Part shown: in pieces, positions 50,887-51,022 of the stretch
Layout: each line of letters starts with the position of its first letter
How positions within the stretch are numbered: position 1 is the first letter of the stretch
Origin: Escherichia coli
Lineage (GTDB): Bacteria > Pseudomonadota > Gammaproteobacteria > Enterobacterales > Enterobacteriaceae
Assembly: GCF_003334355.1 (NCBI RefSeq)
Contig: NZ_QOWP01000018.1
Length of the DNA stretch: 64,000 bases
Direction: 5' to 3' (one strand)
Translations under genes and position numbers: made by a program
Notes under the pieces: model-generated
Told to the model about the DNA's origin: nothing
Databases searched by the model: none
The model's input: only the letters and a program-made list of their open reading frames with translations

Positions 50887-51022
50887 TCAAAGCATAAACC
50901 GATACCCAATACCGGTTTCAGTAATAAAATGGCGAGGCCGGGCCGGATCCTGTTCCAGTTTTTGTCGCAGATGCCCCATATAATTACGCAAATAGTTGCT
51001 GTGTTCGATCGCGTTTAGACCC
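50887..51022 (-). pseudogene. Decayed duplicate of the kdpE 3' end
   Basis: About 136 bp at roughly 90 percent identity to 55316-55453 by eye, same orientation, including the stop; no intact ORF. Confidence 0.65.

Follow-up and report, generated by a model that had tools for sequence, protein, structure and literature searches.

Organization of the kdpE-pgm interval

The window, by which we mean the whole 64-kb stretch of Escherichia coli DNA analysed here, carries on its minus strand an intact kdpE gene for a response regulator of 225 aa (55316..55993, TGA stop at 55316-55318), followed by a module of speFL, speF and potE (51112..55041, minus strand; potE 51112-52431, speF 52428-54626, speFL 54937-55041). 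Approached from the other side on the plus strand, the order is pgm, T1, REP-L-REP, R1, ybfP, ybfG (reverse), a 123-nt spacer, ybfI (reverse), REP′, R2, T2 and potE (reverse). The genes ybfP (49578..50072, plus strand; a lipoprotein of 164 aa) and ybfG (50113..50763, minus strand; a DUF2625 protein of 216 aa) form an accessory block, and ybfP is an accessory gene enriched in phylogroup A in published pan-genome work (10.1101/096479; PMC11390585). The 40-nt gap between these convergent genes contains a GC-rich hairpin (50080-50102, minus strand) that looks like a shared terminator. The ybfG product matches NCBIfam NF008494 with 512 bits, and its nearest homologues outside E. coli, from Pantoea, Kosakonia and Erwinia, are about 50-57% identical.

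The subject of this analysis is ybfI (50886..51030, minus strand), a decayed copy of the last 47 kdpE codons with their TGA stop (50887-50889). When compared with the whole 64-kb window by BLASTN, this region aligns with the 3′ end of the functional kdpE gene (55315..55459, minus strand) over 145 nt, ungapped, with 14 mismatches (90.3% identity, E 1.5e-53), while the next-best match of the same region extends over 43 nt (E 2.6e-6). A direct-repeat search recovered the pair independently, at a spacing of 4429 bp, and a MAFFT alignment was concordant. The two copies of this repeat (D1; copy A is ybfI, copy B the kdpE tail) have the same orientation, with the gene sense on the minus strand, and enclose potE, speF and speFL. 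The original prediction had described a match of about 136 bp to the kdpE 3′ end, at roughly 90% identity and in the same orientation, with the two copies bracketing potE, speF and speFL (about 4.4 kb); the alignment puts the similarity far above chance and confirms each of these points. The extent of the repeat needs amending at both ends. It comprises kdpE codons and the stop, as proposed, and reaches 8 nt further into kdpE (to 51030 and 55459), and the shared 3′ flank that had been included shrinks to a single nucleotide. Homology thus spans from kdpE codon 178 of 225 to 1 nt past the TGA, and beyond the stop the two sequences are unrelated.

The ybfI translation matches positions 41-77 of the 77 in Pfam Trans_reg_C (E 6.6e-8), which corresponds to a partial OmpR/PhoB-type winged helix without the receiver domain. 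PGAP labels it ‘winged helix-turn-helix domain-containing protein, incomplete, missing N-terminus’ in PSS-12, a strain with 100% identity to the window over a 6.5-kb query (50000-56500). Over the 144-nt fragment, ybfI is closest to kdpE of Escherichia (85-90% for E. coli, E. whittamii, Escherichia sp. L003 and E. albertii), with at most 82% identity to kdpE of other genera. The supposition that K-12 has a pseudogene, ybfI, at the equivalent place proved correct: MG1655 carries ybfI (b4636; NC_000913.3 716721-716870) between ybfG and potE, whose 144 nt and flanking sequence are identical to those in the window. The sequence is thus a known, already annotated E. coli pseudogene fragment. K-12 differs from the window in that ybfG is a pseudogene there and intact here, and in the allelic type of the kdpE-speFL spacer. 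Literature searches on ybfI, ybfG, ybfP and the gene neighbourhood returned no description of the potE-ybfI junction; the matches for ‘ybfI’ concerned an unrelated Bacillus subtilis gene of the same name.

Repeats and boundaries around ybfI

The truncated 5′ end of ybfI abuts REP′, a 13-16 nt fragment of a REP arm (51031..51046; BLASTN and alignments), with the join at 51028-51031. The sequence TGCCGGATGCGGC of REP′ (51031-51043) matches the REP end at 49516-49528 exactly when inverted; in direct orientation, as a simple crossover would predict, only 11 of the 13 positions match. Between ybfI and T2 lies R2 (51030..51072, plus strand), consisting of a REP end and a spacer that we call R, and the other copy of this 43-nt repeat, R1 (49516..49558, plus strand), sits just upstream of ybfP. 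This pair (D2; 81% identity) was detected by BLASTN (E 2.6e-6) and by the repeat search. The latter also yielded a third direct-repeat pair, D3 (36 nt, 78% identity), formed by T1 (49375..49410) after pgm and T2 (51067..51102), a bidirectional terminator hairpin after potE; a consensus terminator scan listed T2 but not T1, and T1 is called terminator-like from its 78% similarity to T2. A natural haplotype without the intervening DNA exists for each of D1, D2 and D3. D1 and D2 interleave in the form K...R / K′...R, in other words both ends of the repeated unit are duplicated.

These elements have recognizable relatives. The loop of T2 matches that of the potE/pgm terminator of E. albertii, and T2 as a whole is nearly identical to the single such terminator of that species, while the T1 loop also occurs in E. 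whittamii, Escherichia sp. L003 and A-type E. coli. The BIME-like REP-L-REP element found downstream of pgm (49431..49529) has its orthologue in the kdpE-pgm spacer of E. whittamii and L003; the REP/BIME segment of our query matches at about 40 positions in each E. coli genome. In both E. whittamii and L003, about 10 nt separate the kdpE stop from REP-L-REP-T1-pgm, which is 90-93% identical to 49529-49318 of the window; ybfI therefore occupies the position of kdpE relative to that element.

Annotation of the DNA between the D1 copies lists only speFL, speF, potE and one small hypothetical ORF, and no transposase gene. The distal end of the speF-potE module consists of a terminator, spacer R and a REP arm, and no mobile-element ends were noted at the repeat boundaries. 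The small ORF (44 aa; 55020-55154, minus strand) overlaps the start of speFL; PGAP lists it as the hypothetical protein WP_001299172.1, NCBIfam gave no match for it, and in strain R32_14_1F the corresponding ORF carries the label ‘TonB-dependent receptor’. A further gene remnant or an artefact of annotation may lie behind this ORF.

Distribution of speF-potE, ybfI and ybfG-ybfP

We collected kdpE loci with 10-kb flanks from 80 listed species (Salmonella, E. fergusonii, E. marmotae and E. ruysiae lie outside this set) and mapped the neighbouring genes by tblastn. In the commonest layout among the 80, kdpD-kdpE and pgm are convergent; this kdpE-pgm layout, without speF-potE, is present in Serratia, Pantoea, Dickeya, Buttiauxella, some Citrobacter and Enterobacter, E. 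whittamii and Escherichia sp. L003. The arrangement kdpE-speFL-speF-potE-pgm, with a single kdpE tail, is found in E. albertii, Citrobacter, Enterobacter, Kluyvera, Lelliottia, Trabulsiella, Leclercia and others. A second kdpE tail, ybfG and ybfP were absent from all 80 loci, in which spacer R, ybfP and the ybfI 3′ flank likewise gave no match.

Within E. coli, 5038 of 5426 complete genomes have speF-potE and about 390 do not. A direct pgm-terminator-potE junction with no repeat is present in 3164 of the 5426 (58%), including O157:H7, CFT073 and O111, and the block of ybfG and ybfI in 1773-1845 (approx. 33%), including K-12, BL21 and the window strain. In this collection ybfI occurs only together with ybfG-ybfP. 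Some genomes without speF-potE have kdpE next to ybfP (S1-ISR-02-A, PK8261), others kdpE next to pgm (ST2747). The original prediction held that the speF-potE module had inserted into the kdpE 3′ region with target duplication, and looked to relatives for speF-potE with no accompanying repeat as evidence to the contrary; E. albertii, many other genera and the 3164 E. coli genomes have exactly that arrangement, and the proposal is not supported.

The junction commonly present in E. coli that lack the block joins the potE flank to the pgm flank with its T1 loop, an arrangement seen in three distant lineages and, judged from its sequence, apparently just what T1 × T2 recombination would leave. 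All carriers of ybfI examined (the window, K-12, L086 and four further contigs) share an identical potE-T2-R2-REP′-ybfI junction, so the ybfI arrangement arose once.

The interleaving of D1 and D2 predicts a further haplotype, pgm-T1-BIME-R-T2-potE (A′), which we sought with a synthetic query. One continuous match was obtained in two genomes, R32_14_1F and N96. The order in the R32_14_1F spacer is T1, REP-L-REP, R, T2, potE. Since R has diverged there (90.5% overall) and resembles R1 all the way to T2, this spacer did not arise by recent recombination of the modern block; we read it as most likely a relic of the arrangement that received the ybfG-ybfP block.

Other variants of the interval were encountered. 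In E. coli SC418 (L085; NZ_LR778147.1), IS1397, ISEc31, IS621 and IS200-family elements fill the stretch beyond ybfP and the kdp operon has the opposite orientation, making this interval another rearranged version of the same hotspot. In E. coli ST2747 (L098), pgm and kdpE are 83 bp apart, separated by half of REP-L-REP with no T1 hairpin, a further deletion variant of the speF-less arrangement. The sequence directly after the kdpE stop also varies: the form in the window (55042-55315) and O157 is homologous to E. albertii and Citrobacter, a different one is shared by K-12, L086 and KL53, a third flank belongs to ybfI, and a fourth, a TAG stop and then REP, to speF-less strains. To judge from these sequences, recombination seems to have had a recurrent boundary at the base that follows the kdpE stop. 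Comparison of 51112-55993 with L086, L084 and L002 gave 93.7-97% identity for speF between E. coli strains, 94.2% for potE in L086 and unusually strong divergence in kdpE too, against 99.6-100% for seqA a few kilobases away, which suggests frequent allelic replacement across the potE-speF-kdpE locus.

Loss of speF-potE through the repeat

A synthetic query in which ybfI continues into the rest of kdpE was run on the 5426 complete E. coli genomes. Three of them, CUWW10, GF4-3 and KL53, have an intact kdpE adjoining ybfG and lack speF-potE. CUWW10 is 99.9-100% identical to the window from seqA to ybfG, with kdpE fused to the private 3′ flank of ybfI; its kdpE is of the resident type through repeat nt 126, placing the crossover at nt 127-145. 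GF4-3 is organized in the same way with a different kdpE allele, and KL53 lost speF-potE by an IS1-associated deletion. A metagenome scan for an intact kdpE tail followed by the ybfI flank added four contigs, L100-L103; the pattern required kdpE-like bases at nt 4 and 8 and would miss crossovers nearer the truncated end. The crossover in L102 falls in the longest identical run of the repeat (nt 58-86), those of GF4-3, L100 and L101 at nt 106-145, and GF4-3, L100, L101 and L103 contribute further kdpE alleles. Every scorable deletion product has the modern B1 (see below) ybfG side. These products show D1 mediating repeated, independent losses of speFL-speF-potE that leave kdpE intact. Such loss is rare (two of the 5426 complete genomes and four metagenomic contigs) and involves at least two distinct crossover intervals.

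The outcome resembles the direct-repeat deletion of accessory modules, being a precise loss of the 4.4-kb speFL-speF-potE module in which the crossovers fall within the 145-bp repeat and kdpE survives as an intact chimera. Unlike in dedicated systems, there is no recombinase or att site for the purpose here; the repeat is accidental, 90% identical, and the events are rare.

Sequence decay and the question of function

Two ybfI alleles were distinguished, B1 (the window and K-12) and B2 (L086 and L090-L094). Both have an in-frame TAG in place of a Trp codon (51022..51024, minus strand), and this TAG and three other changes that they share (nt 8, 12, 34 and 47) are absent from every kdpE allele compared. 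They also share C33, G57 and G126, states that are polymorphic among living E. coli kdpE alleles. B1 has seven private changes, and B2 five private substitutions and a 1-nt deletion in a C run, which PGAP flags as ‘frameshifted’. The two alleles differ at about 8% of sites, and the ybfI scar is therefore old relative to E. coli diversification. As in kdpE genes linked to speF, the ybfI stop is TGA; speF-less Escherichia kdpE genes end in TAG. Six private non-synonymous changes in the window/K-12 allele all lie within nt 1-47. The view of ybfI as a decayed copy is upheld by these changes together with the in-frame TAG and the partial Trans_reg_C match, and to judge by its sequence ybfI looks to be decaying like neutral DNA, independently in the two alleles.

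Of the 14 differences between ybfI and the resident kdpE, eight are synonymous, a proportion that, in a codon-position test for a foreign (xenologous) origin, is not significantly different from the expectation under simple decay. A likeness to E. whittamii kdpE became weaker after outgroup polarisation, B2 being kdpE-like at nt 87, 93 and 105, and we dropped this line as proof of such an origin. The private B1 changes at nt 87, 93, 96 and 105 (window 50944-50926, minus strand) all fall at third codon positions, and three of them are E. whittamii kdpE states; this patch at nt 87-105 may reflect a short gene conversion, or chance.

It is conceivable that ybfI has been retained for a function, as a 30-codon ORF starting at an ATG (50977-50979, minus strand) and encoding the KdpE wing peptide, as a regulatory RNA, or as a promoter element for ybfG. 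In favour of this, all six differences from kdpE in the last 30 codons of the window/K-12 allele are synonymous, and weak promoter-like matches occur at and just downstream of the ybfI stop. Yet the 30-codon ORF is frameshifted in B2 by the 1-nt deletion and has four non-synonymous changes there, on which grounds we rejected it; the count of promoter-like matches does not exceed that of shuffled sequence, no Rfam family matched in window positions 49000-56200, and ybfI is absent from about two thirds of E. coli. We regard a function of any of these kinds as extremely improbable. There is no sign of ybfI function, and its only demonstrable activity is a passive one, as a direct repeat with kdpE.

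Origin of the ybfI junction

We propose that ybfI is a non-functional join-point scar, left by the recombination that added ybfG-ybfP beyond potE, and regard this reading as fairly likely. The resident chromosome would have been kdpE-speFL-speF-potE-T2-R-BIME-T1-pgm, with speF-potE already beside kdpE. The incoming segment would have started 144-145 nt upstream of the end of the kdpE stop codon and run through ybfG-ybfP towards R-BIME-T1-pgm, its source being an alternative haplotype with ybfG-ybfP directly downstream of an intact kdpE. A single illegitimate, REP-associated join at the REP arm beyond potE would then yield two tandem units with common ends and different cargo, [kdpE tail-speFL-speF-potE-T2-R2.REP′] followed by [ybfI-ybfG-ybfP-R1.REP]. 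Two wordings would suit the event equally well: unequal crossover between a pair of haplotypes, and illegitimate recombination facilitated by homology. In either wording the kdpE tail would be a passenger of the join that has decayed since, with no target-site duplication by speF-potE.

Several observations speak for this origin. The presence of speF-potE beside kdpE without a second tail is widespread, and ybfI occurs only with ybfG-ybfP, at one identical junction in all carriers examined. ybfI stands in the place of kdpE relative to REP-L-REP-T1-pgm. The interleaving of D1 and D2 is expected from two tandem units with common ends, and the intermediate A′ that this model predicts was recovered in two genomes. 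The neutral-looking decay of ybfI and the existence of deletion products also agree with it. That T2 matches the E. albertii terminator, and T1 that of speF-less Escherichia lineages, also counts in its favour. The order of events that we infer, including which haplotype gave rise to which (A′ to B, or B to A′ and A), follows from terminator types rather than from phylogeny. It counts against the proposal that REP′ is inverted relative to the simplest crossover expectation and that the presumably lost progenitor, an intact kdpE with a ybfI-type allele and ybfG-ybfP outside the B1 clade, was not found in the 5426 E. coli genomes, the 80 listed species loci or one metagenome scan.

The kdpE-ybfG-ybfP parent is seen only in the form of secondary deletion derivatives, and each candidate for it was rejected. 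S1-ISR-02-A, a C-type genome in which kdpE adjoins ybfP, has a kdpE tail that differs from ybfI at 18 positions, against 14 for the resident kdpE. CUWW10, GF4-3, KL53, L100, L102 and L103 have a ybfG side in the B1 clade (0-2 differences in 299 nt versus 8-9 for B2); L101 was set aside with these contigs, its ybfG side not being scorable owing to an internal ybfG deletion of about 250 nt. KL53 also has IS1 at the junction. P0046 and P0060, which contain YbfG relatives (88-89%) that might have marked the locus of another species, are actually of the K-12-type arrangement with a B2 ybfI.

The main rival is an intragenomic tandem duplication, in which a REP beyond potE would have recombined with a sister kdpE 145 nt before its stop, the second speFL-speF-potE-T2 being later replaced by ybfG-ybfP. 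This would account for the interleaved D1 and D2 and for the REP arm at the join, and the TGA stop of ybfI is that of speF-linked kdpE genes rather than the TAG of speF-less Escherichia. At least four unrelated sequences occur just after the kdpE stop in Escherichia, making cargo replacement plausible there, and Shyamala, Schneider and Ames reportedly described REP sequences at duplication join-points in Salmonella in 1990. The window arrangement resembles such join-points and unequal-crossover scars in having a REP-arm fragment joined to a truncated gene and tandem units with common ends; it is unlike a plain tandem duplication in that the cargo differs (speF-potE versus ybfG-ybfP) and the REP fragment is inverted. 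C33, G57 and G126 are within the present E. coli kdpE pool, so the 145 nt fit an inter-haplotype and an intragenomic origin alike. What makes the duplication route unlikely in our view is that it needs an extra, precise replacement event, that no genome with two speF-potE copies was found (places per genome are essentially one), and that the 3′ flank of ybfI shows no relation to the kdpE-speFL spacer, starting with the very first base past the stop. The insertion of speFL-speF-potE into the kdpE 3′ region, with duplication of a target of about 145 bp and decay of one copy, draws its appeal from the geometry, since the copies bracket exactly speFL-speF-potE, 4429 bp apart, and one homology boundary coincides with the kdpE stop codon. 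Direct repeats flanking a gene module do recall the target-site duplication of a transposon or IS, but transposase-type target duplications are far shorter than 145 bp, of the order of a few base pairs; the interval has no annotated transposase gene, and many genera and 58% of E. coli have the module at the same place without the repeat. Insertion would also leave unexplained why the repeat occurs only with ybfG-ybfP and why a REP arm and a second, duplicated spacer (R2) lie at the junction. A weaker form, in which the incoming partner was the speF-potE segment and a kdpE-ybfG-ybfP chromosome received it through two crossovers, the first homologous and the second illegitimate or vice versa, takes up most of the small credence we retain for insertion, which overall seems very unlikely. 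We thus favour the join-point origin, with ybfI as the scar of the recombination that would have brought ybfG-ybfP in beyond potE.

Implications for the locus

As a catalogued pseudogene, ybfI leaves kdp and speF biology unchanged. A flanking repeat need not imply the insertion of the DNA in between, and an attractive inference is corrected here. The kdpE-pgm interval has at least six structural haplotypes within one species, which appear to be related by recombination at short direct repeats. One could go further and see the interval as a modular cassette slot in which ybfI has been kept as a selected contingency that makes speF-potE cleanly excisable; we consider this quite unlikely. Were it true, the three repeat pairs would let E. 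coli repeatedly shed the putrescine/ornithine module speF-potE, or ybfG-ybfP, and each time restore kdpE in full together with a functioning terminator. For the recurrent natural loss of a 4.4-kb metabolic module, a pseudogene remnant of 145 bp and 90% identity is enough, and where speF-potE, ybfG and ybfP serve as pan-genome presence/absence markers, they are linked to the structural polymorphism of the kdpE-pgm interval.
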